Part shown: positions 4,180 through 26,713 of the stretch, piece after piece
How positions within the stretch are numbered: the stretch's first letter is position 1
Layout: every line of letters starts with the position of its first letter
Virus record (IMG/VR): IMGVR_UViG_2721755710_000003
Direction: 5' to 3' (one strand)
DNA from: a virus
Taxonomy: Duplodnaviria; Heunggongvirae; Uroviricota; Caudoviricetes
Length of the DNA stretch: 32,113 bases
Made by a program: the position numbers and the translations under genes
The notes under the pieces: model-generated
Seen by the model: only the letters and a program-made list of their open reading frames with translations
Databases searched by the model: none
What the model was told of the DNA's origin: nothing

Positions 4180-4191
4180 GATTTGTCTACA

Positions 4192-4211
4192 TCTGGACAT
4201 GGATGTCCAGA
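4192..4211. promoter_or_regulatory. Perfect 9-bp inverted repeat with 2-bp spacer (TCTGGACAT gg ATGTCCAGA) in the 69-bp gap between the two cassette genes; candidate operator
   Basis: Read directly from the sequence. It lies about 37 bp upstream of the methyltransferase ATG and just upstream of its GAGAGGGA ribosome-binding site. Confidence 0.4.
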
Positions 4212-4248
4212 AACTGATAAACTACAAAATCAGGAATGAGAGGGATTT

Positions 4249-5133
4249 ATGAAATTTTATACTCCATTAAGATACCCCGGCGGGAAAGGTAAGTTATCTT
4301 ACTTTTTAAAAGATGTTATTGAAAAAAACTCGTTGAATGATGGAGCATATGCAGAACCTTACGCTGGTGGTGCAGGGGTGGCTTTAGAATTATTATTGGA
4401 AGAGTATGTCCGTAAAATCTATATAAATGATGCAGATTTTGCTGTTTATTCTTTTTGGTCATCTGTTGTTAGTGATACTGATGAGCTTTGCCGACTTATT
4501 AGCCGAGCAAAGATAGATATGGATGAATGGTCTTTTCATCGCTATGTTATTTCGAATCCTTCTGAGTTTACTAAGCTTGAGGTTGGCTTTGCTGCGTTTT
4601 TCTTAAATAGAACAAATCGTTCAGGTATTCTCAAGGCGGGGGTTATAGGCGGGAAATCACAAAATGGAAAATGGAAAATGGATGTTCGCTTTAACAGGGC
4701 GGATTTAATTTCAAGAATTGAGAAGATAGCAAATTATAATCAAAGAATAGTAGTAACTAATCTGGATGCTTTGGATTTTCTTGATGCCTTGAATTTTATG
4801 GATAATATGGGAAAGGTGGATAAAAATAAAATTCTTTTGTATTTGGATCCTCCTTACTATATTAAAGGGCAAGGGCTTTACAGGAATTTTTATGAGCATG
4901 ATGACCATGTATTGGTTATGAAGAAACTCACAGAAATTAATTTCCCAAATTGGCTTGTTTCTTATGATAACGCTAAGGAAATTAAAGATATTTATAATGG
5001 ATTTCCGCAAGTTGAGTATTCATTGCAATATACAGCGCATCTCAAAAAATCTGGAGAGGAAGTGATGATTTTTTCTCCTGAAATAATTATTCCTAATACC
5101 CTGAAAGGGGTCTCAATGCCAACTTGCGCCTGA
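4249..5133 (+). CDS. Dam-family (D12 class) N6-adenine DNA methyltransferase, 294 aa
   Basis: Motifs align with E. coli Dam as I recall it: PLRYPGGKGK (Dam LKWAGGK), EPYAGGAGV (Dam EPFVGAGSV), FFLNRTNRSG (Dam FLYLNRYGYNG) and the catalytic LYLDPPYY (DPPY). The gene is AT-rich with a GAGAGGGA ribosome-binding site. Confidence 0.8.
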   Translation: MKFYTPLRYPGGKGKLSYFLKDVIEKNSLNDGAYAEPYAGGAGVALELLLEEYVRKIYINDADFAVYSFWSSVVSDTDELCRLISRAKIDMDEWSFHRYVISNPSEFTKLEVGFAAFFLNRTNRSGILKAGVIGGKSQNGKWKMDVRFNRADLISRIEKIANYNQRIVVTNLDALDFLDALNFMDNMGKVDKNKILLYLDPPYYIKGQGLYRNFYEHDDHVLVMKKLTEINFPNWLVSYDNAKEIKDIYNGFPQVEYSLQYTAHLKKSGEEVMIFSPEIIIPNTLKGVSMPTCA

Positions 5134-5280
5134 TTTTACTTATTTTTTGTCAGTAAGTAATTAGTTTGGTGCATTTATTTGCATTCATTTTTAAATGCCA
5201 GTTCTGGTATCTAACATCAGTGCTGGCGCATTCTAACCATTACTGCTGCACTGCATTTAAAGCCCTGCATGAAGCGGGCG

Positions 5281-5299
5281 GGCGAGGCGGGGAAAGCAC
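5281..5299. other. cos: Phage cos site (19-nt cohesive-end sequence GGCGAGGCGGGGAAAGCAC)
   Basis: Exact match to the P2 cohesive-end sequence as I recall it, located between the accessory cassette and the 3' end of Q, where cos lies in P2. Confidence 0.8.
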
Positions 5300-5466
5300 T
5301 GCGCGCTGACGGTGGTGCTGATTGTATTTTTTCAGCGTCTCAGCGCGTCGTGACGGCACTTAGTCTGCCCGTTGAGGCGTTGTGTGTCTGCGGGGTGTTT
5401 TGTGCGGTGGTGAGCGTGTGAGGGGGGATGACGGGGTGTAAAAAAGCCGCCCGCAGGCGGCGATGT

Positions 5467-6501
5467 TCAGTCGTTGTCAGTGTCCAGTGAGTAGTTTTTA
5501 AAGCGGATGACCTCCTGACCGAGCCAGCCGTTTATCTCGCGGATCCTGTCCTGTAACGGGATAAGCTCATTGCGGACAAAGACCTTTGCCACTTTCTCAA
5601 TATCACCCAGCGACCCGACGTTCTCCGGCTTGCCACCCATCAACTGAAAGGGGATGCGGTGCGCGTCCAGCAGGTCAGCGGCGCTGGCTTTTTTGATATT
5701 AAAAAAATCGTCCTTCGTCGCCACTTCACTGAGGGGGATAATTTTAATGCCGTCGGCTTTCCCCTGTGGGGCATAGAGAAACAGGTTTTTAAAGTTGTTG
5801 CGGCCTTTCGACTTGACCATGTTTTCGCGAAGCATTTCGATATCGTTGCGATCCTGCACGGCATCGGTGACGTACATGATGTATCCGGCATGTGCGCCAT
5901 TTTCGTAATACTTGCGGCGGAACAACGTGGCCGACTCATTCAGCCAGGCAGAGTTAAGGGCGCTGAGATATTCCGGCAGGCCGTACAGCTCCTGATTAAT
6001 ATCCGGCTCCAGCAGGTGAAACACGGAGCCGGGCGCGAAGGCTGTCGGCTCGTTGAAGGACGGCACCCACCAGTAAACATCCTCTTCCACGCCACGGCGG
6101 GTATATTTTGCCGGTGAGGTTTCCAGTCTGATGACCTTACCGGTGGTGCTGTAACGCTTTTCCAGAAACGCATTACCGAACACCAGAAAATCCAGCACAA
6201 AGCGGCTGAAATCCTGCTGGGAAAGCCATGGATGCGGGATAAATGTCGAGGCCAGAATATTGCGTTTGACGTAAATCGGCGAGCTGTGATGCACGGCAGC
6301 CCGCAGGCTTTTTGCCAGACCGGTAAAGCTGACCGGTGGCTCATACCATCTGCCGTTACTGATGCACTCGACGTAATCCAGAATGTCACGGCGGTCGAGT
6401 ACCGGCACCGGCTCACCAAAGGTGAATGCCTCCATTTTCGGGCCGCTGGCGGTCATTGTTTTTGCCGCAGGTTGCGGTGTTTTCCCTTTTTTCTTGCTCA
6501 T
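5467..6501 (-). CDS. Q: Portal protein GpQ, 344 aa
   Basis: Translation and length match P2 GpQ as I recall it. Its start overlaps the stop of P by 1 nt. Confidence 0.93.
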   Translation of the reverse strand: MSKKKGKTPQPAAKTMTASGPKMEAFTFGEPVPVLDRRDILDYVECISNGRWYEPPVSFTGLAKSLRAAVHHSSPIYVKRNILASTFIPHPWLSQQDFSRFVLDFLVFGNAFLEKRYSTTGKVIRLETSPAKYTRRGVEEDVYWWVPSFNEPTAFAPGSVFHLLEPDINQELYGLPEYLSALNSAWLNESATLFRRKYYENGAHAGYIMYVTDAVQDRNDIEMLRENMVKSKGRNNFKNLFLYAPQGKADGIKIIPLSEVATKDDFFNIKKASAADLLDAHRIPFQLMGGKPENVGSLGDIEKVAKVFVRNELIPLQDRIREINGWLGQEVIRFKNYSLDTDND

Positions 6502-8273
6502 CAGTAAAACTCCAGAATGGTGGATGTCAGCGGGGTGCTGATACCGGCGGTGAGTGGCTCATTTAACAGGGCGTGCATGGTCGCCCAGGCGAGGTCGGCG
6601 TGGCTGGCTTCCTCGCTGCGGCTGGCCTCATAGGTGGCGCTGCGTCCGCTGCTGGTCATGGTCTTGCGGATAGCCATAAACGAGCTGGTGATGTCGGTGG
6701 CGCTGACGTCGTATTCCAGACAGCCACGGCGGATAACGTCTTTTGCCTTGAGCACCATTGCGGTTTTCATTTCCGGCGTGTAGCGGATATCACGCGCGGC
6801 GGGATAGAACGAGCGCACGAGCTGGAACACGCCGACACCGAGGCCGGTGGCATCAATACCGATGTATTCGACGTTGTATCTTTCGGTGAGTTTGCGGATG
6901 GATTCCGCCTGGGTGGCAAAGTCCATGCCTTTCCACTGGTGACGCTCAAGTATTCTGAATTTGCCACCGGCCACCACCGGCGGTGCCAGTACCACGCATC
7001 CGGCGCTGTCGCCACGGTGTGACGGGTCGTAACCAATCCATACCGGGCGGGAGCCGAACGGATTGGCGGCAAACGGCGCATAGTCTTCCCATTCTTCCAG
7101 CGTGTCGACCATGCAGCGTTGCAGCTCCTCGAACGGGAACACCGATGCCTTGTCGTCAACAAATTCACACATGAACAGGTTTTTAAAATCGTCGGCGCTG
7201 TTTTCGCGTTTGAGCTGCTCAATGTCGAACAGCGTGCAGCCGCCTTTCAGGGCGTCCTCAATGGTGACAATCTGTCGCCACTGGCCGTCCGCACAGAGAA
7301 GCCCACCGGCAAGGGCGTTATGACTGACGTCGATTTCCACGCGTTCGGCGGCGCTGGCGCGTCCCCGGTTAAACAGTTCACCCGACCAGAACGGGTAGGC
7401 GTCGTGCGCCAGCGTGGACGGGGTGGAGAAATAGGTCGAGCGCAGGTGACTCTGTGAGGCCATACCTGATGCCACCTTACGCAGTACCTGAAAATTCGGG
7501 ATCCAGAAAATCTCATCGACGTACAGGTCGCCGTTATGACTCTGCGCGGTGTTGGAGTTGGTGCCGAGAAAAATCAGTTTTGCGCCGTTATTGCCCAGGA
7601 CAATCGGGTCACCGGTCAGGTCAACGTCAACCAGACGGGCAAAGGCGATGATGTATTCGCGGAACACATACGCCTGCGTTTTACTGGCCGACAGAAAAAT
7701 CTGGTTATGACCGGTTTTCAGGGCACGCAGCAGCGCCTCGCGGGAAAAATAAAACGTCGCGCCAATCTGGCGGGATTTCAGGATATCGCGGATGCGGTGC
7801 TCAAGCCCGGCACGATACCAGTGCAGCTGATAGTCGAAAGACTGCTCAAAGAAAATCTGCTCCAGCTTTTCGATGGCCTCGTCACTGAAAAAATTCTTTT
7901 TCGGTTTGCGCCGTCCGCCTTTGTTACGGTTAGCGACGTTCGGATTAAGGTCTGCCTCGTTGCCGGTCTGGCTGTAGCGGTTGACCCGTGCCAGTCGTTC
8001 AATCTGGCGTCCCAGCAGGTCAATTTCCTTGAAGTCACCGCCGGTTTTCTGTGGTTTGATGATGAGCTGGGTCAGCCGCGCTTCCAGACTCATTTCGACA
8101 CGGCTGATGGGGGCAACGCTGTCCCAGCCGTCGCGCTGTTTCCAGCTCTGCACTGTCGGGCGTTTCATCTGCAACATGGCGGCAATCTGCGGCACGGAAA
8201 ACCCCTGCCAGTACAGCAGCGCCGCCTGACGACGCGGGTCGTGTAAAAGAGTGGTGTCTGTGGTGATGGTCAT
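6501..8273 (-). CDS. P: Terminase large subunit (ATPase/endonuclease) GpP, 590 aa
   Basis: The ORF is open from 8303, but the P2-like protein starts at MTITTDTTLLHDPRR, giving 6501..8273. Gene order and size match P2 GpP. Confidence 0.92.
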   Translation of the reverse strand: MTITTDTTLLHDPRRQAALLYWQGFSVPQIAAMLQMKRPTVQSWKQRDGWDSVAPISRVEMSLEARLTQLIIKPQKTGGDFKEIDLLGRQIERLARVNRYSQTGNEADLNPNVANRNKGGRRKPKKNFFSDEAIEKLEQIFFEQSFDYQLHWYRAGLEHRIRDILKSRQIGATFYFSREALLRALKTGHNQIFLSASKTQAYVFREYIIAFARLVDVDLTGDPIVLGNNGAKLIFLGTNSNTAQSHNGDLYVDEIFWIPNFQVLRKVASGMASQSHLRSTYFSTPSTLAHDAYPFWSGELFNRGRASAAERVEIDVSHNALAGGLLCADGQWRQIVTIEDALKGGCTLFDIEQLKRENSADDFKNLFMCEFVDDKASVFPFEELQRCMVDTLEEWEDYAPFAANPFGSRPVWIGYDPSHRGDSAGCVVLAPPVVAGGKFRILERHQWKGMDFATQAESIRKLTERYNVEYIGIDATGLGVGVFQLVRSFYPAARDIRYTPEMKTAMVLKAKDVIRRGCLEYDVSATDITSSFMAIRKTMTSSGRSATYEASRSEEASHADLAWATMHALLNEPLTAGISTPLTSTILEFY

Positions 8274-8446
8274 GAATACCTCGCCGTGATGAATACACGG
8301 CAAGGCTACTGAGTCGCGCCCCGCGATTCGCTAAGGTGCTGTTGTGTCAGTGATAAGCCATCCGGGACTGATGGCGGAGGATGCGCATCGTCGGGAAACT
8401 GATGCCGACATGTGACTCCTCTAATCACTATTCAGGACTCCTGACA
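8274..8446. promoter_or_regulatory. Divergent P/O intergenic region, expected to carry the two Ogr-dependent late promoters
   Basis: Position only, between divergently transcribed P and O. I could not find a perfect TGT-N12-ACA dyad by eye; the nearest is TGT-N12-CAC at 8411-8428. Confidence 0.4.
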
Positions 8447-9301
8447 ATGGCAAAAAAAGTCTCAAAATTCTTTCGTATCGGCGTTGAGGGTGACACCTGT
8501 GACGGGCGTGTCATCAGTGCGCAGGATATTCAGGAAATGGCCGAAACCTTTGACCCGCGTGTCTATGGTTGCCGCATTAACCTGGAACATCTGCGCGGCA
8601 TCCTGCCTGACGGTATTTTTAAGCGTTATGGCGATGTGGCCGAACTGAAGGCCGAAAAGATTGACGATGATTCGGCGCTGAAAGGCAAATGGGCGCTGTT
8701 TGCGAAAATCACCCCGACCGATGACCTTATCGCGATGAACAAGGCCGCGCAGAAGGTCTACACCTCAATGGAAATTCAGCCGAACTTTGCCAACACCGGC
8801 AAATGTTATCTGGTGGGTCTGGCCGTCACCGATGACCCGGCAAGCCTCGGCACGGAATACCTGGAATTCTGCCGCACGGCAAAACACAACCCCCTGAACC
8901 GCTTCAAATTAAGCCCTGAAAACCTGATTTCAGTGGCAACGCCTGTTGAGCTGGAATTTGAAGACCTGCCTGAAACCGTGTTCACCGCCCTGACCGAAAA
9001 GGTGAAGTCCATTTTTGGCCGCAAACAGGCCAGCGATGATGCCCGTCTGAATGACGTGCATGAAGCGGTGACCGCTGTTGCTGAACATGTGCAGGAAAAA
9101 CTGAGCGCCACTGAGCAGCGCCTCGCTGAGATGGAAACCGCCTTTTCTGCACTTAAGCAGGAGGTGACTGACAGGGCGGATGAAACCAGCCAGGCATTCA
9201 CCCGCCTGAAAAACAGTCTCGACCACACCGAAAGTCTGACCCAGCAGCGCCGCAGCAAAGCCACCGGCGGTGGCGGTGACGCCCTGATGACGAACTGCTG
9301 A
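8447..9301 (+). CDS. O: Capsid scaffolding protein GpO, 284 aa
   Basis: Translation from MAKKVSKFFRIGVEGDTCDGR matches P2 GpO as I recall it; the ORF is open further upstream from 8381. Confidence 0.93.
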   Translation: MAKKVSKFFRIGVEGDTCDGRVISAQDIQEMAETFDPRVYGCRINLEHLRGILPDGIFKRYGDVAELKAEKIDDDSALKGKWALFAKITPTDDLIAMNKAAQKVYTSMEIQPNFANTGKCYLVGLAVTDDPASLGTEYLEFCRTAKHNPLNRFKLSPENLISVATPVELEFEDLPETVFTALTEKVKSIFGRKQASDDARLNDVHEAVTAVAEHVQEKLSATEQRLAEMETAFSALKQEVTDRADETSQAFTRLKNSLDHTESLTQQRRSKATGGGGDALMTNC

Positions 9302-9359
9302 CCGGCGTCAGCCAGTCCGGGAAAACCTTCACGATTAACCCTTAATTTCAGGAAAAACT

Positions 9360-10433
9360 ATGCGCCAGGAAACCCGCTTTAAATTTAATGCCTACCTGTC
9401 CCGTGTTGCCGAACTGAACGGCATCGACGCCGGTGATGTGTCGAAAAAATTCACCGTTGAACCGTCGGTCACCCAGACCCTGATGAACACCATGCAGGAG
9501 TCCTCTGACTTTCTGACCCGCATCAATATTGTGCCGGTCAGCGAAATGAAAGGGGAAAAAATTGGTATCGGTGTCACCGGCTCCATCGCCAGCACTACCG
9601 ACACTGCCGGTGGTACCGAGCGTCAGCCGAAGGACTTCTCGAAGCTGGCGTCAAACAAGTACGAATGCGACCAGATTAACTTCGATTTTTATATCCGCTA
9701 CAAAACGCTGGACCTGTGGGCGCGTTATCAGGATTTCCAGCTCCGTATCCGTAACGCCATTATCAAACGCCAGTCCCTTGATTTCATCATGGCCGGTTTT
9801 AACGGCGTGAAGCGTGCCGAAACCTCTGACCGCAGCAGCAATCCGATGTTGCAGGATGTGGCGGTCGGCTGGCTGCAGAAATACCGCAATGAAGCACCGG
9901 CGCGCGTGATGAGCAAGGTCACTGACGAGGAAGGCCGCACCACCTCTGAGGTTATCCGCGTGGGTAAGGGCGGTGATTATGCCAGCCTTGATGCACTGGT
10001 GATGGATGCGACCAACAACCTGATTGAACCGTGGTATCAGGAAGACCCTGACCTTGTGGTGATTGTGGGGCGTCAGCTACTGGCGGACAAGTATTTCCCC
10101 ATCGTCAACAAGGAGCAGGACAACAGCGAAATGCTGGCCGCTGACGTCATCATCAGCCAGAAACGCATCGGTAACCTACCAGCGGTACGCGTCCCGTACT
10201 TCCCGGCGGATGCGATGCTCATCACGAAGCTGGAAAACCTGTCCATCTACTACATGGATGACAGCCATCGCCGCGTGATTGAGGAAAACCCGAAACTCGA
10301 CCGCGTGGAGAACTACGAGTCAATGAACATTGATTACGTGGTGGAAGACTACGCCGCCGGTTGTCTGGTGGAAAAAATCAAGGTCGGTGACTTCTCCACA
10401 CCGGCTAAGGCGACCGCAGAGCCGGGAGCGTAA
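9360..10433 (+). CDS. N: Major capsid protein GpN, 357 aa
   Basis: Size and position match P2 GpN; it follows O in the late operon. Confidence 0.93.
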   Translation: MRQETRFKFNAYLSRVAELNGIDAGDVSKKFTVEPSVTQTLMNTMQESSDFLTRINIVPVSEMKGEKIGIGVTGSIASTTDTAGGTERQPKDFSKLASNKYECDQINFDFYIRYKTLDLWARYQDFQLRIRNAIIKRQSLDFIMAGFNGVKRAETSDRSSNPMLQDVAVGWLQKYRNEAPARVMSKVTDEEGRTTSEVIRVGKGGDYASLDALVMDATNNLIEPWYQEDPDLVVIVGRQLLADKYFPIVNKEQDNSEMLAADVIISQKRIGNLPAVRVPYFPADAMLITKLENLSIYYMDDSHRRVIEENPKLDRVENYESMNIDYVVEDYAAGCLVEKIKVGDFSTPAKATAEPGA

Positions 10434-10436
10434 CCG

Positions 10437-10648
10437 ATGACGAGTCCCGCACAGCGCCACATGATGCGGGTCTCGGCAGCGATGACCGCGCAGCGGGAAG
10501 CCGCCCCGCTGCGACATGCAACTGTCTATGAGCAGATGCTGGTTAAGCTCGCCGCAGACCAGCGCACACTGAAAGCGATTTACTCAAAAGAGCTGAAGGC
10601 CGCAAAAAAACGCGAACTGCTGCCGTTCTGGTTGCCGTGGGTGAACGG
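10437..10648 (+). pseudogene. M: Terminase small subunit GpM, N-terminal fragment (interrupted by IS21-family insertion)
   Basis: Translation MTSPAQRHMMRVSAAMTAQREAAPLRH...LPFWLPWVNG then runs into IS sequence and stops after 9 unrelated codons. Confidence 0.9.
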
Positions 10649-10733
10649 TGCGTATTACCGTGAAGGAGATCGGTGAGTAACATCGATGGAGATCGGTTCG
10701 TGTCACTTTCACAGAACCGTTTTTAAATTACCT

Positions 10734-11483
10734 TCACTGATCTCCTTCGGTCAACGGAGATTGTATTTTCCGCATTGATTCTCCTTTAAGTTCGATCTTG
10801 ATACTGCCATGAACCAGTCGATCTAGGATGGCATCCGCATGTGTGGAGTCTCCGATCATTTTGTACCAGTTTTCCACCGGCAACTGGCTCACTACGATGA
10901 TTGAGCCTCGTTGGTACATCAGATCCACTATTTCCAGCAGGTCGCTACGCTGTTCTGATGAGAGAGGTTCCAGCCCCCAGTCATCCAGAAGCAGCAGATC
11001 GCTATTATTCAGCCTGGTCAAAAGTTTGCTGTATCTTCCATCAGCATGCCCCTGATAGCACTGTTCCATCAGCGCTTTAAGGCGATAATAGTAGACCTTG
11101 TATCCCTGTCGGCAGGCATTATGACCAAGTGCACATGCCAGGAACGTTTTACCGCTGCCGGTGGCCCCGGTCAGTAAAATATTTTGTTTCAGGGTTAACC
11201 AGTTTCCCTGACTGAGTGAACGGATGAGGGCCCTGTCCAGCCCTCTATTGTTACGATAATCCAGCTTTGATAACTCAGCATTAAGTCTGAACCGTGCATG
11301 TTTGATCAGACGCTCTGCCTTCCTGTTTTCACGGCAGGTTAGTTCTTCTGCTGTCAGTAATGACAGGCGTTCTTCGAAGCCCAGCTCCTGGTATGTGCCC
11401 GGCTGAGCAAGTTGCTTTTTAAGCGCATCACGGAAGCCGGTGAGTTTAAGTGCGGTCAGTTGTTCGTAAAGATGATTCATCAT
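10734..11483 (-). CDS. istB: IS21-family ATP-binding helper protein IstB, 249 aa
   Basis: Walker A LLTGATGSGKTFLACALG and Walker B LLLLDDWG, in the IstB/DnaC-like architecture, immediately downstream of istA. Confidence 0.88.
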   Translation of the reverse strand: MMNHLYEQLTALKLTGFRDALKKQLAQPGTYQELGFEERLSLLTAEELTCRENRKAERLIKHARFRLNAELSKLDYRNNRGLDRALIRSLSQGNWLTLKQNILLTGATGSGKTFLACALGHNACRQGYKVYYYRLKALMEQCYQGHADGRYSKLLTRLNNSDLLLLDDWGLEPLSSEQRSDLLEIVDLMYQRGSIIVVSQLPVENWYKMIGDSTHADAILDRLVHGSIKIELKGESMRKIQSPLTEGDQ

Positions 11484-11494
11484 TGGATCCCGTA

Positions 11495-13036
11495 TCAGTG
11501 GTAATACTCACTGCCGCGTACGTTTTCGTGTTCCATCGTGGATAACAGATCTGGTTTTGGATCCTGAACAGGTTGTTTATCCAGACCTTTTTCCAGGATC
11601 GATTTAATACCTGACAGACGCCATACCTTTGTTTTCAGAGCTCTTGCACATGCTGCATTAAGTCTGGCTTTACTGTATTTTTTATGAAGGTTCAGGAGTC
11701 CAAGGCAGAAGCGATAGCTTTGTTCCGGATGTGGACGAGAGTTCAGTATATGAAGCACATAACTATGAGTTTCACTGCCTATGTGCCCCGCCCATTCCAG
11801 AAGACGCTCTGGCGTCCAGGTGGCATGCTGTCGATGAGCTTCAGGCATGTGCTCGTTGCGGGTACTGTAGCCATAAGTACGCTTGCGCGGGTGCACAGCA
11901 ACCTCCTGCCCCTGATTGAAGAGTCTTACCAGTTCTCCGGAGATCCATGCTTCCAGTTGCTGGCCTAACAGCGAACATGGAACCGAGTAGTAATGTTTGT
12001 CGATTTCCACGTGGTAATCGGCATGAACTCTGACTTTCTTCACCAGGGTGTAACTGTAACTGGCTTCAGGAAGAGGCTTCAGTGCGGGTTTATCAAGCTG
12101 GATGAAGAGTTCTGCACGTGAATAACCCAACTTCTGCATTATTTTGTTATTCAGTCTTTCCAGCAACTCCCGAATGCGCTGATTAAGCGATGCAAGGCTG
12201 TAGAAGATCTCATGCCTGATTCGGGCCATGATCCAGCGTTCAACAACCTGAACGCCAACTTCAGCTTTGGCTTTATCTTTCGGTTTACGTGGCCGCGCAG
12301 GCAAAACTGCGACATTATAATGCTCAAGCATCTGCTGGTAGGTAGGGTTAACGTCAGGATCATACTTACATGCCCTGGATGTGGCGCTTTTCAGATTGTC
12401 CGGAACAACAAGTTCAGGAACGCCACCCAACCACTGGAAGCAGCGAACATGACTCATCACCCAGTCTTCAAGCTGCTGAGACCAGGTGGCCTCTGCCCAT
12501 GTGTAACTTGATGCCCCGAGAACAGCTACGATGACCTGAGCAGTTCTTATTTCTCCGGTCTCAGGGTCGGTAACGCCAACGGTAGGTCCACAGTAATCAA
12601 CGAAAAGTTTTTCGCCAGCTTTATGTACCTGACGCATTGATGGTGAAGTGGTTTTGAGCCATTCACGGTACATCCGGCAGTAATGGTTATAGCTGTAAAA
12701 ACCGCCTGGATTACGCTCACAGTATTCTTCCCAGAGTAGCTGCAGCGTCACGCATTTATTACGCAGTTCCCGGTGTACTGTAGCCCAGTCAGGCAGAGAG
12801 TGCTTCTTCATCTTAACCTGGGTCTGAAGGAACGCATGTTTTAGTTTTGTATCATCCCATCCTGTAGGTAAGGGCCACTGCTTTATGCCAAGTTGAGCCG
12901 CCCGATTAGCATATCTGGATACAACGGAAGGGGAGATTGCAAGACTACGACCAATTTGTCGATGGCTGAGTCCAACACCGTATTTAAGCCTAAGAATTTC
13001 TTTAAGTTTTCTCATAGAAATTGGAACTGTTGGCAT
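11495..13036 (-). CDS. istA: IS21-family transposase IstA (N-terminal HTH, DDE catalytic domain), 513 aa
   Basis: N-terminal HTH region (LSHRQIGRSLAISPSVVSRY), size and pairing with istB. I cannot name the specific IS by eye. Confidence 0.85.
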   Translation of the reverse strand: MPTVPISMRKLKEILRLKYGVGLSHRQIGRSLAISPSVVSRYANRAAQLGIKQWPLPTGWDDTKLKHAFLQTQVKMKKHSLPDWATVHRELRNKCVTLQLLWEEYCERNPGGFYSYNHYCRMYREWLKTTSPSMRQVHKAGEKLFVDYCGPTVGVTDPETGEIRTAQVIVAVLGASSYTWAEATWSQQLEDWVMSHVRCFQWLGGVPELVVPDNLKSATSRACKYDPDVNPTYQQMLEHYNVAVLPARPRKPKDKAKAEVGVQVVERWIMARIRHEIFYSLASLNQRIRELLERLNNKIMQKLGYSRAELFIQLDKPALKPLPEASYSYTLVKKVRVHADYHVEIDKHYYSVPCSLLGQQLEAWISGELVRLFNQGQEVAVHPRKRTYGYSTRNEHMPEAHRQHATWTPERLLEWAGHIGSETHSYVLHILNSRPHPEQSYRFCLGLLNLHKKYSKARLNAACARALKTKVWRLSGIKSILEKGLDKQPVQDPKPDLLSTMEHENVRGSEYYH

Positions 13037-13229
13037 AGGTATCCTTTACCGGAATGGCAAAAGATACAGATCAACACACCTGTGAAGTTCCAATAACATT
13101 GATGGAGATCACTGAATAACAAAATGAGTCAAAAGTGATCTCCATCGATGTTATTCAGCGATCTGTTCAAATGTTATTACCCGATCTCGATGGAAGTTAT
13201 TGAGTGATCTCCTTTCATGAAAATACGCA

Positions 13230-13766
13230 AACGGCGTGCTGGAGCTGGGCAAAGGTGCACAGGATGACATTCTGATGACGGTCATGCTGTGGCGTCTGGA
13301 TACCGGCGATATTGCCGGTGCGCTGGAGATTGCCCGTTATGCCCTGAAGTACGGTCTGACCATGCCGGGTAAACACCGCCGTACCCCGCCGTACATGTTC
13401 ACCGAGGAGGTGGCGCTTGCGGCCATGCGCGCTCACGCTGCCGGTGAGTCTGTGGATACCCGCCTGCTGACGGAGACCCTTGAACTGACCGCCACGGCTG
13501 ACATGCCTGATGAAGTGCGCGCAAAGCTGCACAAAATCACCGGTCTGTTTCTGCGTGACGGTGGTGATGCCGCCGGTGCGCTGGCTCACCTGCAACGTGC
13601 GACACAGCTCGACTGTCAGGCAGGCGTCAAAAAAGAGATTGAACGACTGGAGCGGGAGCTGAAACCGAAGCCGGAGCCGCAGCCCAAAGCGGCCACCCGC
13701 GCCCCGCGTAAGACCCGGAGCGTGACACCGGCAAAACGTGGACGCCCGAAAAAGAAAGCCAGTTAA
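13230..13766 (+). pseudogene. M: Terminase small subunit GpM, C-terminal fragment
   Basis: Translation resumes (N)GVLELGKGAQDDILMTVMLWRLDTGD... exactly at the target duplication. Removing the IS and one AACGG copy restores the continuous WVNGVLELGKG reading frame. Confidence 0.9.
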
Positions 13767-13865
13767 CAACCGAATGCGCCCCGCGCCAGGGCGGCACGCC
13801 GGTCAGTGACGGTGAATCACCTGACACTGCACCGGCGTCCACCGCCCGACTTTTCAGAGGTAGTC

Positions 13866-14375
13866 ATGATGACGCTGATTATTCCGCGAAAGGAGGCTCC
13901 CGTGTCCGGTGAGGGTACGGTGGTCATCCCGCAACCGGCAGGCGACGAGCCGGTGATTAAAAACACGTTCTTTTTTCCCGATATCGACCCGAAGCGCGTC
14001 CGGGAACGTATGCGCCTTGAGCAGACCGTCGCCCCCGCCCGTCTGCGTGAGGCCATCAAGTCAGGCATGGCTGAAACGAATGCGGAGCTGTACGAGTACC
14101 GCGAACAGAAAATTGCCGCCGGTTTTACGCGTCTGGCTGACGTCCCGGCGGACGATATCGACGGTGAAAGCATCAAGGTTTTTTACTACGAGCGCGCCGT
14201 GTGTGCGATGGCGACCGCGTCGCTTTATGAGCGTTATCGCGGTGTGGATGCCAGTGCGAAAGGCGACAAGAAGGCTGACAGCATTGACAGCACCATTGAT
14301 GAGCTGTGGCGGGATATGCGCTGGGCGGTGGCGCGCATCCAGGGCAAGCCGCGCTGCATCGTGAGTCAAATCTGA
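13866..14375 (+). CDS. L: Head completion protein GpL, 169 aa
   Basis: Translation from MMTLIIPRKEAPVSGEGTVV matches P2 GpL as I recall it; the ORF is open from 13806. Confidence 0.9.
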   Translation: MMTLIIPRKEAPVSGEGTVVIPQPAGDEPVIKNTFFFPDIDPKRVRERMRLEQTVAPARLREAIKSGMAETNAELYEYREQKIAAGFTRLADVPADDIDGESIKVFYYERAVCAMATASLYERYRGVDASAKGDKKADSIDSTIDELWRDMRWAVARIQGKPRCIVSQI

Positions 14376-14578
14376 TGAAGACCTTTGCGCTACAGGGCGA
14401 CACGCTCGACGCCATTTGTGTCCGCTATTACGGGCGCACTGAGGGCGTGGTTGAGGCCGTGCTCGCCGCAAATCCGGGACTGGCTGAACTGGGGGCGGTG
14501 CTGCCACACGGCACCGCCGTCGAACTGCCCGACGTTCAGACCGCGCCCGTGGCTGAAACTGTCAATCTGTGGGAGTAA
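14375..14578 (+). CDS. X: Tail protein X (LysM-like), 67 aa
   Basis: Translation MKTFALQGDTLDAICVRYYGRTEGVVEAVL... matches P2 GpX; the ATG overlaps the L stop (ATGA). Confidence 0.9.
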   Translation: MKTFALQGDTLDAICVRYYGRTEGVVEAVLAANPGLAELGAVLPHGTAVELPDVQTAPVAETVNLWE

Positions 14579-14581
14579 CGC

Positions 14582-14863
14582 ATGACAGCAGAAGAAAAAA
14601 GCGTCCTGTCGCTTTTCATGATTGGGGTGCTGATTGTTGTCGGCAAGGTGCTTGCCGGTGGTGAACCTATCACCCCGCGTCTGTTTATCGGGCGCATGTT
14701 GCTCGGTGGTTTTGTCTCGATGGTTGCCGGTGTTGTTCTGGTGCAGTTTCCTGACCTGTCACTGCCAGCGGTGTGCGGCATCGGCTCCATGCTGGGTATC
14801 GCCGGTTATCAGGTGATTGAGATTGCCATTCAGCGCCGCTTTAAGGGCAGGGGGAAACAGTAA
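14582..14863 (+). CDS. Y: Holin GpY, 93 aa
   Basis: Small protein with hydrophobic transmembrane segments and a charged C-terminus, immediately upstream of the endolysin, as in P2. Confidence 0.9.
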   Translation: MTAEEKSVLSLFMIGVLIVVGKVLAGGEPITPRLFIGRMLLGGFVSMVAGVVLVQFPDLSLPAVCGIGSMLGIAGYQVIEIAIQRRFKGRGKQ

Positions 14864-15360
14864 TGCCGGTAATTAACACGCATCAGAATATCGCCGCCTT
14901 TCTCGACATGCTGGCCGTGTCCGAAGGGACGGCGAATCATCCACTGACGAAAAACCGGGGCTATGACGTGATAGTCACCGGACTGGACGGAAAGCCGGAA
15001 ATTTTCACCGACTACAGTGACCACCCGTTCGCGCATGGCCGACCGGCGAAGGTGTTTAACCGTCGCGGTGAAAAATCCACGGCCTCCGGTCGTTATCAGC
15101 AGCTTTACCTGTTCTGGCCGCATTACCGCAAACAGCTTGCCCTGCCGGATTTCAGTCCGTTGTCACAGGACAGACTTGCCATTCAGTTGATCCGCGAACG
15201 CGGTGCACTGGATGACATCCGGGCGGGACGCATTGAGCGCGCCATTTCACGCTGTCGCAATATCTGGGCGTCCCTGCCGGGTGCCGGTTACGGTCAGCGT
15301 GAGCATTCACTGGAAAAACTGGTCACCGTCTGGCGTACCGCTGGCGGCGTACCGGCTTAA
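14863..15360 (+). CDS. K: Endolysin (lysozyme) GpK, 165 aa
   Basis: Translation and position match P2 GpK. Confidence 0.9.
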   Translation: MPVINTHQNIAAFLDMLAVSEGTANHPLTKNRGYDVIVTGLDGKPEIFTDYSDHPFAHGRPAKVFNRRGEKSTASGRYQQLYLFWPHYRKQLALPDFSPLSQDRLAIQLIRERGALDDIRAGRIERAISRCRNIWASLPGAGYGQREHSLEKLVTVWRTAGGVPA

Positions 15361-15374
15361 ACGGAGTAAATACC

Positions 15375-15800
15375 ATGAAGAAATTATCCCTTTCACTGAT
15401 GCTGAACGTGTCGCTGGCGCTGATGCTGGCACTGTCCCTGATTTACCCGCAGAGCGTGGCCGTCAGTTTTGTCGCCGCCTGGGCGATTCTGGCGACGGTT
15501 ATCTGTGCGGTTGCCGGTGGTGTCGGCGTGTATGCCACTGAGTATGTGCTGGAACGCTACGGGCGGGAGCTGCCACCGGAATCGCTGGCCGTGAAGATTG
15601 TCACGTCGCTGTTTTTGCAGCCGGTGCCGTGGCGCAGACGGGCAGTAGCTCTGGTGGTGATGGTGGCGACATTTATCTCGCTGGTCGCTGCCGGGTGGAT
15701 TTTTACCGCGCTGATTTATCTCGTGGCATCGGTGTTCTTCCGACTGATACGTACGGCCTGCCGTCAGCGTTTTGAGGGGCGGGAACCATGTCAAGGCTGA
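15375..15800 (+). CDS. lysA: Lysis accessory protein LysA (multi-pass membrane protein), 141 aa
   Basis: Hydrophobic membrane protein after K, with size and position as in P2. Confidence 0.85.
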   Translation: MKKLSLSLMLNVSLALMLALSLIYPQSVAVSFVAAWAILATVICAVAGGVGVYATEYVLERYGRELPPESLAVKIVTSLFLQPVPWRRRAVALVVMVATFISLVAAGWIFTALIYLVASVFFRLIRTACRQRFEGREPCQG

Positions 15801-16213
15801 TGATTGTGCTGGTCGTGTTGTTATCGCTGGCGGTGGCCGGTCTGTTTCTGGTGAAACACAAAAATGCCAGCCTGCGCGCCTCGCTGGACAGGGCGAACAA
15901 CGTCGCCAGCGGTCAGCAGACGACCATCACCATGCTGAAAAATCAGCTTCATGTTGCGCTCACCAGGGCAGATAAAAACGAGCTGGCGCAGGTGGCACTG
16001 CGTCAGGAACTGGAGAACGCCGCGAAACGTGAAGCACAGCGCGAGAAAACTATCACGAGGTTACTTAATGAGAACGAAGATTTTCGCCGCTGGTACGGTG
16101 CTGACCTGCCTGATGCTGTGCGCCGGTTGCACCAGCGTCCCGCCTGCACCGACGCCAGTGATTGTCCCCAACGCATGCCCGAAAGTGAGCCTTTGCCCGA
16201 TGCCGGGCAGTGA
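15788..16213 (+). CDS. lysB: LysB (Rz-like inner-membrane spanin), 141 aa
   Basis: N-terminal transmembrane segment followed by a coiled-coil-like region; position as in P2. Confidence 0.85.
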   Translation: MSRLMIVLVVLLSLAVAGLFLVKHKNASLRASLDRANNVASGQQTTITMLKNQLHVALTRADKNELAQVALRQELENAAKREAQREKTITRLLNENEDFRRWYGADLPDAVRRLHQRPACTDASDCPQRMPESEPLPDAGQ

Positions 16214-16358
16214 CCCGCAGACGAACGGCGATTTAAGTGCCGATATCCGGCAGCTTGAGAACGCGCTGGCACGCTGTGCCAGCCAGGTAAAAATGATTAA
16301 ACACTGTCAGGACGAAAACGATGCTCAAACCCGACAGCCTGCGCAGGGCGCTGACTGA
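16068..16358 (+). CDS. lysC: LysC (Rz1-like outer-membrane lipoprotein spanin), about 96 aa, starting inside lysB in the +1 frame and running into the start of R
   Basis: Translation MRTKIFAAGTVLTCLMLCAGCTS carries a lipobox (LCAGC) and a proline-rich mature region. Confidence 0.75.
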   Translation: MRTKIFAAGTVLTCLMLCAGCTSVPPAPTPVIVPNACPKVSLCPMPGSDPQTNGDLSADIRQLENALARCASQVKMIKHCQDENDAQTRQPAQGAD

Positions 16359-16788
16359 TGCCGTCACGGTGCTGAAAACTAACCCCGATATGCTGCGGAT
16401 ATTCGTGGATAACGGGAGTATTGCCTCCACACTGGCGGTGTCGCTGTCATTCGAAAAGCGTTACACGCTCAATGTGATTGTGACCGACTTTACCGGTGAT
16501 TTTGACCTGCTCATTGTGCCGGTGCTGGCGTGGCTGCGGGAAAATCAGCCCGACATCATGACCACCGACGAAGGCCAGAAAAAGGGCTTCACGTTTTATG
16601 CAGACATCAACAATGACAGCAGCTTTGATATCAGTATCAGCCTGATGCTGACCGAGCGCACGCTGGTCAGTGAGGTGGACGGCGCACTGCATGTGAAGAA
16701 TATCTCGGAACCCCCGCCGCCGGAGCCGGTCACCCGCCCGATGGAGCTGTATATCAATGGCGAACTGGTGAGTAAGTGGGATGAATGA
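16321..16788 (+). CDS. R: Tail completion protein GpR, 155 aa
   Basis: Size and position as in P2. Confidence 0.9.
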   Translation: MLKPDSLRRALTDAVTVLKTNPDMLRIFVDNGSIASTLAVSLSFEKRYTLNVIVTDFTGDFDLLIVPVLAWLRENQPDIMTTDEGQKKGFTFYADINNDSSFDISISLMLTERTLVSEVDGALHVKNISEPPPPEPVTRPMELYINGELVSKWDE

Positions 16789-17233
16789 GTTTAAGCGTTT
16801 TGAAGACCGGCTGACCGGACTGATTGAATCGCTGTCACCGTCAGGGCGTCGGCGACTGAGTGCCGAACTGGCGAAACGTCTGCGGCAGAGTCAGCAGCGT
16901 CGGGTGATGGCACAGAAAGCCCCGGACGGCACACCCTACGCGCCACGCCAGCAGCAGAGCGTCAGAAAAAAGACCGGTCGCGTTAAGCGAAAAATGTTTG
17001 CGAAACTTATTACCAGTCGTTTTTTGCATATCCGTGCCAGCCCGGAGCAGGCATCAATGGAATTTTACGGCGGGAAGTCGCCGAAAATCGCCAGTGTGCA
17101 TCAGTTTGGTCTGTCGGAAGAAAACCGGAAAGACGGTAAGAAAATTGATTATCCGGCGCGTCCCCTGCTCGGCTTTACCGGTGAGGATGTGCAGATGATT
17201 GAAGAGATTATCCTGGCTCACCTTGAGCGTTAG
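16781..17233 (+). CDS. S: Tail completion protein GpS, 150 aa
   Basis: Size and position as in P2. Confidence 0.9.
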   Translation: MNEFKRFEDRLTGLIESLSPSGRRRLSAELAKRLRQSQQRRVMAQKAPDGTPYAPRQQQSVRKKTGRVKRKMFAKLITSRFLHIRASPEQASMEFYGGKSPKIASVHQFGLSEENRKDGKKIDYPARPLLGFTGEDVQMIEEIILAHLER

Positions 17234-17262
17234 TTTTATCCAGGCAGAGGCTGATGCGCAAT

Positions 17263-17299
17263 TAAACATTGAGCGGCCATGCTGGTCGCTCAATGTTTA
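17263..17299. terminator. 13-bp perfect-stem hairpin (TAAACATTGAGCG / CGCTCAATGTTTA, 11-nt loop) between convergent S and the orf30-position gene; candidate bidirectional terminator
   Basis: Inverted repeat read directly from the sequence. There is no strong U-tract on either strand, so the function is uncertain. Confidence 0.45.
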
Positions 17300-17304
17300 G
17301 AGGT

Positions 17305-18090
17305 TTATGAGTGATTTTTATTTGATGCTTTGTATTCTAAAACCTTCTTATTGGCGTAAAAGAATTTTGTATATGACAGGAATATAACCAGACCTGAAGT
17401 GAAATAGACGAGGGATAGTATTAATAATGCTTTTTTGTGACTGTTATTATCTTTAATCTCCTGGCTTAACCATTCGGAGTCCTCCTCGTTTAGCTGTAAG
17501 AGCTTATTGCAGGCGATCTCAGGAAGTGTGTCTTTTATAAATACGTTTTGCAGTCTCTTGCAATCGGCAAGGCTATAAGTTTTATTAAATTCAACTGCTT
17601 TATTTTTGAAGGATAAAAGAACTTTGTCACTATAAACATAGTACATCATGTTTTTATATGGTATGCCTGTGGCATCCCTTACTATAACGGATTGTTCGTT
17701 GTGTATGTAACATGCGAGGAGAATGTAAAAAATACTGGCCAGAATTACAATTATTGTTTTAATTATGTGTGGTGGTTTTGTTATGTCACCCCAGATACGA
17801 GTAAGGAAAAAATACGATGTTTTTAGTTTTCCATCAATCAGTCCCTGCTGTATCATTCTCACATTTTCAATGCCTGATACATTGATTCCGTTAATTATTT
17901 TAAATAGTTGAATATCGCGCCACTCGCGGTCAAGTCTTTTTAATTTTTTGTCTGAATATCCAAAATTGAAATAATGTGCAATAAGCCTCATAAGGTTACT
18001 TTTACCAAAGCTAAAAAATGCTAATACTGCAAAGCTACAAAGGAAAAAAACGATTAGCCCCCACACATTAGTCACATTATAGCTGACCAT
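17305..18090 (-). CDS. AT-rich hypothetical membrane protein with three predicted transmembrane helices, 261 aa, antisense to the late operons at the S/V junction (P2 orf30 position)
   Basis: Hydrophobic stretches GLIVFFLCSFAVLAFFSF, IIKTIIVILASIFYILLACYI and ALLILSLVYFTSGLVIFLSY. A strong ribosome-binding site (AAGGAGAG) lies 4 nt upstream of the ATG on the minus strand. Confidence 0.7.
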   Translation of the reverse strand: MVSYNVTNVWGLIVFFLCSFAVLAFFSFGKSNLMRLIAHYFNFGYSDKKLKRLDREWRDIQLFKIINGINVSGIENVRMIQQGLIDGKLKTSYFFLTRIWGDITKPPHIIKTIIVILASIFYILLACYIHNEQSVIVRDATGIPYKNMMYYVYSDKVLLSFKNKAVEFNKTYSLADCKRLQNVFIKDTLPEIACNKLLQLNEEDSEWLSQEIKDNNSHKKALLILSLVYFTSGLVIFLSYTKFFYANKKVLEYKASNKNHS

Positions 18091-18105
18091 TACGCTCTCC
18101 TTGAA

Positions 18106-18125
18106 TGTTGTCTGGTAGTTCTACA
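18106..18125 (+). promoter_or_regulatory. Candidate Ogr-dependent late promoter element for the V operon (TGTTGTCTGGTAGTTCTACA; imperfect TGT...ACA dyad)
   Basis: Partial dyad about 50-70 bp upstream of the V start, where an activator-dependent late promoter is expected. Spacing is N11 or N14 rather than a perfect N12. Confidence 0.4.
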
Positions 18126-18173
18126 AATGAATCCAGATAGCATAACTTTTATATATTGTGCAATCTCACATGC

Positions 18174-18809
18174 ATGAACACTCTCGCAAATATTCAGGAA
18201 CTCGCGCGCGCACTGCGCAACATGATTCGCACTGGCATTATCGTCGAAACCGACCTTAACGCCGGTCGCTGCCGCGTGCAGACCGGCGGCATGTGCACCG
18301 ACTGGCTTCAGTGGCTGACCCATCGCGCAGGACGTTCGCGCACATGGTGGGCACCTTCCGTGGGGGAACAGGTGCTGATTCTGGCCGTGGGTGGTGAACT
18401 CGACACGGCGTTCGTTCTGCCGGGGATTTATTCCGGCGATAACCCCTCGCCGTCTGTGTCGGCGGATGCCCTGCATATCCGTTTCCCTGACGGGGCGGTG
18501 ATTGAATATGAACCCGAAACCAGTGCACTCACGGTAAGCGGAATTAAAACGGCCAGCGTGACGGCTTCTGATTCTGTTACTGCCACGGTGCCGGTGGTCA
18601 TGGTGAAAGCATCAACCCGCGTCACCCTGGACACCCCGGAGGTGGTCTGCACCAACAGGCTGATTACCGGCACGCTGGAAGTGCAGAAAGGCGGGACGAT
18701 GCGCGGCAACATTGAACACACCGGCGGTGAACTCTCATCAAACGGTAAGGTACTGCATACCCATAAACACCCCGGCGACAGCGGCGGCACAACCGGGAGT
18801 CCTTTATGA
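18174..18809 (+). CDS. V: Baseplate spike protein GpV, 211 aa
   Basis: Translation from MNTLANIQELARALRNM; size and position as in P2. Confidence 0.9.
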   Translation: MNTLANIQELARALRNMIRTGIIVETDLNAGRCRVQTGGMCTDWLQWLTHRAGRSRTWWAPSVGEQVLILAVGGELDTAFVLPGIYSGDNPSPSVSADALHIRFPDGAVIEYEPETSALTVSGIKTASVTASDSVTATVPVVMVKASTRVTLDTPEVVCTNRLITGTLEVQKGGTMRGNIEHTGGELSSNGKVLHTHKHPGDSGGTTGSPL

Positions 18810-19153
18810 CAGCGCGTTATCTCGGAATGAATCGCAGTGATGGCCTGACTGTCACTGACCTTGAGCATATCAGCCAGAGTATCGGCGATATCCTGCGCAC
18901 ACCGGTCGGCTCACGGGTGATGCGTCGTGATTACGGCTCGTTGCTGGCGTCAATGATTGACCAGCCGCAGACCCCGGCGCTTGAGTTGCAGATTAAAGTC
19001 GCCTGTTACATGGCAGTGCTGAAATGGGAACCCCGCGTCACCCTGTCATCCGTCACCACGGCGCGCAGTTTTGACGGGCGAATGACGGTCACGTTAACCG
19101 GCCAGCACAACGACACCGGCCAGCCACTTTCATTAACCATCCCTGTGAGTTGA
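18806..19153 (+). CDS. W: Baseplate protein GpW (gp25-like), 115 aa
   Basis: Size and position as in P2. Confidence 0.9.
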   Translation: MTARYLGMNRSDGLTVTDLEHISQSIGDILRTPVGSRVMRRDYGSLLASMIDQPQTPALELQIKVACYMAVLKWEPRVTLSSVTTARSFDGRMTVTLTGQHNDTGQPLSLTIPVS

Positions 19154-19157
19154 AACC

Positions 19158-20066
19158 ATGCCGATTATCGACCTGAACCAGCTACCCGCACCGGATGTGG
19201 TCGAGGAGCTGGACTTTGAAAGCATTCTCGCTGAACGCAAGGCGACACTGATTTCCCTTTACCCGGAAGATCAGCAGGAGGCGGTCGCCCGTACCCTGAC
19301 ACTGGAATCTGAGCCTCTCGTCAAACTGCTGGAAGAAAATGCTTATCGTGAGCTTATCTGGCGTCAGCGTGTGAATGAGGCCGCACGGGCGGTGATGCTG
19401 GCCTGTGCCGCCGGTAATGACCTTGATGTGATTGGTGCCAATTACAACACCACGCGCCTGACTATCACCCCGGCAGATGATTCGACCATGCCGCCGACAC
19501 CGGCAGTGATGGAATCTGACACCGATTATCGTCTGCGTATTCAGCAGGCTTTTGAGGGCTTAAGCGTCGCCGGGTCAGTGGGAGCCTATCAGTATCATGG
19601 TCGCAGTGCTGACGGGCGTGTCGCGGATATTTCTGTCACCAGTCCGTCTCCTGCCTGTGTCACCATCTCTGTGCTGTCACGTGAAAATAACGGCGTCGCA
19701 TCCGAAGACCTGCTGGCTGTGGTGCGTAACGCCCTTAATGGCGAGGACGTCAGGCCGGTGGCCGACCGCGTGACCGTGCAGTCTGCCGCCATCGTTGAAT
19801 ACCAGATAAACGCCACGCTTTACCTTTACCCTGGTCCCGAAAGCGAACCCATCCGCGCTGCCGCTGTGAAAAAGCTGGAAGCGTATATCACGGCACAGCA
19901 CCGGCTGGGGCGCGACATCCGTCTGTCTGCCATTTATGCCGCTTTGCATGTGGAAGGTGTGCAGCGTGTCGAACTGGCTGCACCACTGGCCGACATCGTG
20001 CTCAACAGTACGCAGGCGTCTTTCTGTACCGAATACCGCGTCGTGACCGGAGGCTCGGATGAGTGA
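19158..20066 (+). CDS. J: Baseplate protein GpJ, 302 aa
   Basis: Size and position as in P2. Confidence 0.9.
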   Translation: MPIIDLNQLPAPDVVEELDFESILAERKATLISLYPEDQQEAVARTLTLESEPLVKLLEENAYRELIWRQRVNEAARAVMLACAAGNDLDVIGANYNTTRLTITPADDSTMPPTPAVMESDTDYRLRIQQAFEGLSVAGSVGAYQYHGRSADGRVADISVTSPSPACVTISVLSRENNGVASEDLLAVVRNALNGEDVRPVADRVTVQSAAIVEYQINATLYLYPGPESEPIRAAAVKKLEAYITAQHRLGRDIRLSAIYAALHVEGVQRVELAAPLADIVLNSTQASFCTEYRVVTGGSDE

Positions 20067-20589
20067 TTCGCGACTGCTGCCGACCGGCTCATCACCGCTT
20101 GAGGTCGCCGCCGCAAAAGCCTGTGCGGAAATTGAAAAAACGCCGGTCAGTATTCGTGAACTGTGGAACCCGGACACCTGTCCGGCAAATCTGCTGCCGT
20201 GGCTGGCGTGGGCGTTTTCGGTCGACAGGTGGGATGAAAAGTGGCCGGAAGCGACAAAACGCGCCGTTATCCGCGATGCCTATTTCATCCACTGTCATAA
20301 GGGCACGATAGGTGCAATCCGGCGTGTGGTGGAGCCGCTCGGCTATCTCATCAACGTGACGGAGTGGTGGGAAAACAGTGACCCGCCCGGCACCTTCCGG
20401 CTTGATATTGGTGTACTGGAAAGCGGTATCACAGAGGCAATGTATCAGGAAATGGAACGGCTGATTGCTGATGCCAAACCTGCAAGCCGTCACCTTATTG
20501 GCCTGAACATTACCCGGGACATTCCCGGCTACCTGTTCGCCGGTGGTGTGGCTTACGACGGCGATGTAATTACGGTTTACCCCGGATAA
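20059..20589 (+). CDS. I: Baseplate protein GpI, 176 aa
   Basis: Size and position as in P2. Confidence 0.9.
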   Translation: MSDSRLLPTGSSPLEVAAAKACAEIEKTPVSIRELWNPDTCPANLLPWLAWAFSVDRWDEKWPEATKRAVIRDAYFIHCHKGTIGAIRRVVEPLGYLINVTEWWENSDPPGTFRLDIGVLESGITEAMYQEMERLIADAKPASRHLIGLNITRDIPGYLFAGGVAYDGDVITVYPG

Positions 20590-20599
20590 GTGAGGAATA

Positions 20600-22609: not shown

Positions 22610-22612
22610 GTT

Positions 22613-26701: not shown

Positions 26702-26713
26702 GGAGCCTGACCG

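Follow-up and report, generated by a model that had tools for sequence, protein, structure and literature searches.

A simple ISEc12 insertion in the terminase small-subunit gene M of a defective P2-like prophage of Escherichia coli

We analyzed a stretch of viral DNA of 32,113 nucleotides (IMG/VR record IMGVR_UViG_2721755710_000003; hereafter the window) in which gene M, encoding the terminase small subunit of a P2-like prophage, is interrupted by a complete copy of the insertion sequence ISEc12. The interruption is almost certainly a single simple insertion at codon 70/71 of M, in a prophage situated between yegS/yegR and yegQ on the E. coli chromosome. The protein gpM is truncated after 70 native residues as a result. 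ISEc12 is a named and common insertion sequence and its insertion here is of an already known kind. This is an ordinary insertion of a known element into a known gene of a prophage that is defective. The features on which these statements are based are compiled in Table 1.

Table 1. Features of the IS1-linked left end, the interrupted gene M, and the ISEc12 element, in window coordinates.
Feature	Position	Strand	Evidence or description
End of an IS1A copy, replacing the prophage left end	1-331	-	Alignment to the intact relative begins at window 332
Replication gene A without its first 300 nt and promoter	332-2317	+	PF05840; PGAP 'replication endonuclease, missing N-terminus'
Gene M, 5' fragment (codons 1-70 plus 2 nt)	10437-10648	+	PF05944 profile positions 1-39
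Target-site duplication AACGG, left copy	10644-10648	.	Identical to right copy; single AACGG at the empty site of the relative
ISEc12, complete, 2,581 bp	10649-13229	-	istAB operon antisense to M; 100% identity to E. coli copies
istB-proximal terminal inverted repeat	10649-10705	.	5'-TG start; two direct repeats with a GGAGATC core at 23-bp spacing
istB, AAA+ helper ATPase, 248-249 aa	10734-11483	-	Walker A GATGSGKT and Walker B LLLLDD in translation
istA, DDE transposase, 513 aa	11495-13036	-	NF033546 equivalog, 310 bits (cutoff 160)
istA-proximal terminal inverted repeat	13137-13229	.	CA-3' end; four repeats in 23-bp register
Target-site duplication AACGG, right copy	13230-13234	.	Window sequence and empty-site alignment
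Gene M, 3' fragment (completes codon 71, to codon 247 plus stop)	13235-13766	+	PF05944 profile positions 39-130

The boundaries of the element could be placed to the base. At the left junction, the flank ...GGGTGAACGG is followed by TGCGTATTACC..., which is the start of the element, and at the right junction the element end ...AAAATACGCA is followed by the flank AACGGCGTGCTGG...; the two junctions read ...CCGTGGGTGAACGG / TGCGTATTACCGTGAAGGAGATCGG... on the left and ...GATCTCCTTTCATGAAAATACGCA / AACGGCGTGCTGGAGCTG... on the right. The outer eight bases of the two ends are complementary at 8/8 positions (TGCGTATT / AATACGCA), and inward of these the inverted repeats extend further with imperfect matching and are offset by 1 nt. 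The GGAGATC core also occurs in inverted orientation near both ends, at 10739-10745 on the istB-proximal side and at 13104-13110 on the istA-proximal side. The first-pass annotation, which was made from the window sequence, had described an element spanning 10649-13229 with matching terminal repeats and a 5-bp AACGG direct duplication. Every one of its coordinates proved correct to the base, and the terminal repeats match as described over the outer bases before the match becomes imperfect.

The same annotation had taken the element to be a complete member of the IS21 family, and profile searches agree with this assignment. The element encodes, in istA, a DDE transposase with an N-terminal helix-turn-helix (HTH), which carries the Pfam domains rve (PF00665) and Mu-transpos_C_2 (PF22483) and scores above the equivalog cutoff of the NCBIfam profile 'IS21 family transposase' (NF033546). 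Directly downstream of istA, and separated from its stop codon by 11-14 nt, is the start of istB, the product of which matches the profile 'IS21-like element helper ATPase IstB' (NF038214; equivalog, 270 bits against a cutoff of 200) as well as PF01695 (IstB_IS21; 227 bits). The ends, beginning with TG and finishing with CA, are built from multiple direct repeats with 23-bp spacing, of which the istB end has two and the istA end four, and the element is flanked on both sides by a short direct target duplication of the length typical of the family (5 bp).

Complete E. coli genomes contain many copies that are 100% identical to the window element throughout its 2,581 bp, and matching copies are labeled 'IS21-like element ISEc12 family' by PGAP. 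The element is therefore named here as ISEc12, a name that rests on 100% identity to PGAP-annotated copies. A look at other genomic copies, as had been advised at first pass, revealed 5,552 matching places, spread over 1,908 of the 5,426 complete E. coli genomes searched, on chromosomes and plasmids alike, with a median of 3 places per genome that had any. The same length and the same ends were recovered at 15 other insertion sites. The intact open reading frames and the identity of this copy, ends included, to widespread copies suggest that it may be competent for transposition.

The target of the insertion had been named as the terminase small-subunit gene M, and domain content, nucleotide identity to bacteriophage P2, and synteny all confirm this. 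Matches to PF05944 (Phage_term_smal) are split at profile position 39 and are contiguous over both M fragments. The surrounding gene order is O, N, M, L, as in P2, with M positioned between the major capsid gene N and the head-completion gene L. Joining 10437-10648 to 13235-13766, which removes the element and one AACGG copy, yields an open reading frame of 744 nt that is in frame and encodes a gpM of 247 aa (...LPFWLPWVNGVLELGKG...), such that the exact restoration of the frame claimed at first pass is borne out; over its first 612 nt, the restored gene has 99.7% identity to M of bacteriophage P2. In the interrupted state, the reading frame of the 5' fragment enters the insertion sequence for 9 codons and terminates with a stop at 10676 (ORF 10437-10676), and in the E. 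coli elppa10 chromosome (NZ_CP083478.1) this fragment is called 'gpM, partial' by PGAP. Truncation of gpM after 70 native residues leaves the prophage without the means to make a functional terminase.

That the element entered M by simple insertion is best seen by comparison with an empty site. E. coli Res13-Lact-PER13-34 (NZ_CP062824.1) carries a prophage that is 99.7-99.8% identical to that of the window at the same chromosomal site adjoining yegQ, with no insertion sequence in M. Window positions 332-10648 and 13230-32113 align collinearly to this genome with a shared stretch of exactly 5 bp, which implies that AACGG is present as a single copy at the empty site. An uninterrupted M allele, for which a search among relatives had been proposed, is thus available in silico, and it encodes the same protein as the restored window gene. 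Independent assembly of the interrupted allele is provided by elppa10, the chromosome of which has the identical M::ISEc12 junction and is separated from the window by 2 SNPs across 30.8 kb. Among the 5,426 complete E. coli genomes, this junction was found in elppa10 only. The elppa10 chromosome has one place that matches the junction query (which included 150 bp of the end of the insertion sequence), and a search of its plasmid unnamed1 for a donor copy found no ISEc12. Together, the single match on the chromosome and the lack of any on this plasmid leave little repeat ambiguity.

Two alternatives to a simple insertion were weighed against these data. The element might mark a rearrangement (a deletion, an inversion, or resolution of a cointegrate), in which case the two M fragments would not originally have been contiguous. 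IS21-family elements have been reported to form cointegrates through tandem copies (PMC10122671), and the same prophage has an IS1-associated deletion at its left end. However, the flanks align collinearly with the intact prophage and share there just the 5 bp of the duplication, AACGG is identical on both sides of the element, and the restored M is in frame and encodes the same protein as the relative. The empty-site alignment already refutes a rearrangement, to which we assign a very low probability, and the first-pass reading of a simple insertion without IS-mediated rearrangement holds. An assembly artefact, with a repeated insertion sequence misplaced inside M, appears just as improbable. 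Many E. coli strains carry several copies of ISEc12, and repeats are well known to cause assembly errors, but a misplaced repeat would yield no 5-bp target duplication, and a closed genome only 2 SNPs away has the same structure. The possibility of an assembly chimera, which had been named as grounds for refuting the insertion, is ruled out by the junction in NZ_CP083478.1 together with the empty site.

The insertion in M is not the only lesion of this prophage. In the intact relative, the genes are ordered yegS, yegR, int, the C-type repressor gene, cox, five small early genes, and A. In the window lineage, 4,633 bp extending from just downstream of yegS to nt 300 of A have been replaced by IS1, the end of which abuts A at window position 332, equivalent to nt 301 of the full-length gene. 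Compared to the intact prophage, this lineage has lost yegR, attL, int, C, cox, the remaining early genes, and the beginning of A. An intact inducible P2 prophage is expected to have attL, int, C, cox, the early genes, and a full-length A, and the window prophage does not retain this set. Since the loss includes attL, int, cox, the repressor, the early promoter region, and the start of A, the prophage is without the capacity for excision or replication. It is defective whatever the state of M, and at least one other disabling lesion thus accompanies the insertion in M.

The IS1/A junction was found only in the elppa10 lineage among the 5,426 complete genomes. A search of these genomes for relatives with only one of the two lesions, the IS1 deletion or M::ISEc12, by which the lesions might be ordered, found none, both junctions being confined to a single lineage. 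The first-pass annotation had regarded the insertion as a knockout of DNA packaging that is clean and potentially reversible. Disruption of M is upheld, but the framing as a clean and reversible knockout is not supported, since the prophage is independently crippled by the IS1-linked deletion, and owing to that loss the restoration of M would yield no phage. Precise loss of an insertion sequence together with one copy of its duplication is, moreover, not a product of the transposase of DDE elements, and would need rare host-mediated slippage between the 5-bp repeats. We conclude that the prophage is a decaying, non-excisable remnant and that the ISEc12 insertion is a step in this decay rather than a switch.

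The way in which the element is likely to have entered M can be proposed by analogy with the IS21 family. Tetramers of IstA would synapse both multi-repeat ends of the element (PMC10122671, PMC11208146), and the ATPase IstB, acting as decamers, would capture and bend the target DNA and activate IstA. Cleavage and strand transfer by IstA with a 5-bp stagger, followed by gap repair, would then generate the AACGG duplication. Beyond the loss of gpM, the antisense insert of 2.6 kb may exert polar effects on the genes that follow M in its late operon (L, X, the lysis genes, R, and S), and helper capacity for P4-type satellites would probably have been lost. A scan of the region for promoters and terminators recovered nothing above shuffled expectation, and this includes the terminator-like matches inside the insertion sequence.

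ISEc12 was also encountered in P2-like prophages of other E. coli strains. Three further positions are in or just after M, with duplications of TATGC, GGTGA, and GTCAG. Other insertions are in cox, Q, V, J, FI, and T, in H in three strains, and at the X/Y junction, the FII/E junction, and the intergenic region upstream of V. The 16 loci that were examined represent 16 different sites, and the duplication is 5 bp in 12 of the 16 insertions; longer duplications are of 6 bp (two cases), 7 bp (one case), and 8 bp (two cases). A census of the 5,426 genomes was conducted with a query composed of the insertion sequence and thirteen conserved 60-bp P2 blocks, for which 80% coverage requires the insertion sequence and at least two chained blocks. 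This detected complete ISEc12 copies in the late region of P2-like prophages, in the orientation of the window in at least 68 genomes and in the opposite orientation in at least 81. A P2-type M gene is present in 1,502 genomes, and the genomes with ISEc12 in a P2-like prophage amount to roughly 10% of that number. When P2-like prophages were sampled with queries free of the insertion sequence, ISEc12 was present in 6 of 21 and 3 of 34. By a rough estimate, P2-like late regions, which represent ~0.1% of the DNA searched, contain a few per cent of the ISEc12 copies overall. In the literature library that was searched, no paper tied ISEc12 to P2 prophages.

Two patterns that were considered in these data were discarded. 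The four antisense insertions in or just after M prompted the idea that M is a hot spot for ISEc12 with a fixed orientation; this was rejected as ascertainment bias, given that the initial queries were skewed toward this orientation and that the IS-free query and the two-orientation census returned sites throughout the prophage in both orientations (68 versus 81). A resemblance between the flanks of other copies and the GTGGGTGAACGG beside the element was likewise set aside, as the flanks in question had been selected by BLAST for chance similarity and unselected sites have no consensus.

It is possible, although we lean against it, that ISEc12 lands preferentially in P2-like prophages, more often than would be explained by dispensable DNA tolerating insertions. 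If such a bias is real, it could reflect a structure-based choice by IstB of silent, deformable DNA, or selection for the disabling of P2 late genes. Simple tolerance of insertions in silent, dispensable DNA may account for the pattern instead.

Selection could also be invoked for the window insertion itself, which might have been favored for disabling the terminase, and possibly the lysis genes via polarity, and so for shielding the host. The threat averted would be late-gene expression set off by a superinfecting P2 or by a P4-type satellite, or helper service rendered to satellites. The delta protein of P4 can transactivate P2 late promoters without P2 replication. The recurrence of ISEc12 in P2-like prophages of at least ~149 of the 5,426 genomes, at many independent sites that are mostly in essential late genes, would fit such an explanation. 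However, the insertions are distributed over all late genes and occur in both orientations, as is expected of unselected events in dispensable DNA, and the window prophage was incapable of excision or replication anyway. We consider positive selection unlikely and retain the reading of the insertion as a step in the decay of a remnant.

Prophage decay by insertion of an insertion sequence is a textbook process, and the present case carries little weight alone. Its use is chiefly in annotation, where gpM should be given as a pseudogene split by ISEc12 and the prophage as a non-excisable remnant. Because the M::ISEc12 and IS1/A junctions are both unique to one lineage among the 5,426 complete genomes, they could also serve as lineage markers. 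The recurrent insertion of ISEc12 in P2-type prophages could justify a systematic in vivo study of target choice in the IS21 family.

Compared to bacteriophage P2, the M gene of the window is alike in length (247 aa when restored), in its placement within O-N-M-L, and in nucleotide sequence over the first 612 nt. In the window, however, the gene is split after codon 70 and resides in a remnant without int, C, cox, and the start of A. A parallel with regard to decay is the cryptic P2 remnant of E. coli K-12 at the yegQ/yegR locus, comprising ogrK and yegZ. This remnant occupies the same attachment region as the window prophage, whose ogrK adjoins yegQ, and is likewise a decaying prophage of P2 type. 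It has been reduced to a couple of genes, whereas the window retains about 29 kb of late genes together with two IS-associated lesions.

With regard to the element, the nearest precedent is the insertion of ISEc12 in tssM of E. coli ST131 clade C/H30, which has a 5-bp target duplication (PMC10711316). The element is the same, the duplication is of the same length, and in both cases a gene was inactivated through simple insertion; the target alone differs, being gene M of a P2-type prophage instead of tssM. Among IS21-family elements more broadly, terminal repeats are organized in an L1/L2 and R1/R2 architecture with 23-bp spacing, cointegrates are possible via tandem copies, IS5376 generates a 5-bp duplication, and no strong target specificity is reported (PMC10122671). 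ISEc12 shares with IS21 and IS5376 the istA-istB operon, the TG...CA ends, the 23-bp repeats, and the 5-bp duplication (PMC10122671, PMC11208146), and like them it has no obvious target consensus. It differs from these models in being longer (2.58 kb) and in having four repeats at the istA end, and its IstA, at 513 aa, compares with about 400 aa for the structurally studied transposase of the family. Unlike in the IS21 and IS5376 models, the duplication among the natural ISEc12 insertions that were examined is occasionally 6-8 bp.

Insertions of ISEc12 were identified within P2-like prophages in at least 68 (orientation as in the window) and 81 (opposite orientation) of 5,426 complete E. coli genomes, at many independent sites. 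This frequency is far above that expected from a uniform distribution, and the excess may reflect either a target preference of ISEc12 or a tolerance of such insertions. The ISEc12 loci in other E. coli genomes (L003-L005, L007, L008, L010-L016, and L019-L021) map to window positions ~6202, 13338, 13563, 13802, 14572, 18140, 18467, 19468, ~22024, 25870, 27204, and 29589. Among 16 insertions of the same 2,581-bp element in P2-like prophages, the target duplication varied in length and was not always 5 bp: duplications of 5 bp were recorded in 12 cases, of 6 bp in two (GTTGCT and AGCGTC), of 7 bp in one (ATGGATG), and of 8 bp in two (GTGATAAT and GCATAACT).

In the chromosome of strain elppa10 (NZ_CP083478.1), which matches the window, the ISEc12 in M is apparently the sole copy with that end. 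No ISEc12 was found on plasmid unnamed1 of this strain (NZ_CP083479.1), a plasmid of the ColV type that carries several resistance genes and whose IS21-family content comprised only a fragment of a different element. Given the apparently single chromosomal copy and the lack of ISEc12 on this plasmid, a donor for the insertion in M is not evident.

The prophage carries a second lesion at its left end, where 4,633 bp that are present in the intact relative (strain Res13-Lact-PER13-34, NZ_CP062824.1) are absent. The lost segment takes in yegR, attL, int, C and cox, then the small early genes, and reaches 300 nt into gene A. Excision and replication of the window prophage are impossible. The junction of IS1 with gene A was detected in only one of the 5,426 genomes. 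The remnant directly 3' of gene A (see table) is also a pseudogene in that relative, which is otherwise intact, and it therefore predates the IS events. The window differs from the intact relative by few SNPs, and these fall in clusters at 977-1741 (gene A) and 20899-21286 (tail-fibre gene H), a pattern suggestive of short recombined patches and not of divergence at a clock-like rate.

Features of the window prophage outside the ISEc12 insertion
Feature	Window position	Strand	Remarks
IS1A end	1-331		takes the place of the prophage left end
Truncated gene A	332-2317		first 300 nt missing
Short frameshifted remnant	2317-2398		PGAP: RNA-binding/DUF3850 protein
Cassette gene 1	2674-4179	+	PADLOC PD-Lambda-5_A, E 1e-167
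Cassette gene 2	4249-5133	+	PADLOC PD-Lambda-5_B, D12-class adenine methyltransferase, E 1e-121
Hypothetical protein	17305-18090	-	261 aa; between late genes S and V, on the opposite strand
P-loop ATPase, Sll1717 family	23534-25120	-	528 aa; PGAP annotation

Two minus-strand genes returned no match in Pfam and PADLOC searches (E ≤ 0.001 for the ATPase). The hypothetical protein encoded between S and V is kept in many P2-like prophages. The Sll1717-family ATPase is encoded between the tail-fibre assembly gene G and the sheath gene FI, a variable position at which other P2-like prophages carry different cargo (Shedu, a restriction endonuclease, and others), and it may be an uncharacterised defence candidate. 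A 7-bp indel relative to the intact relative lies just outside this gene, at 23530.

In P2-type phages the cargo between A and the portal gene Q also varies, and here a two-gene cassette occupies this position. By its PADLOC matches, this cassette is a known anti-phage system, PD-Lambda-5, carried as prophage cargo.
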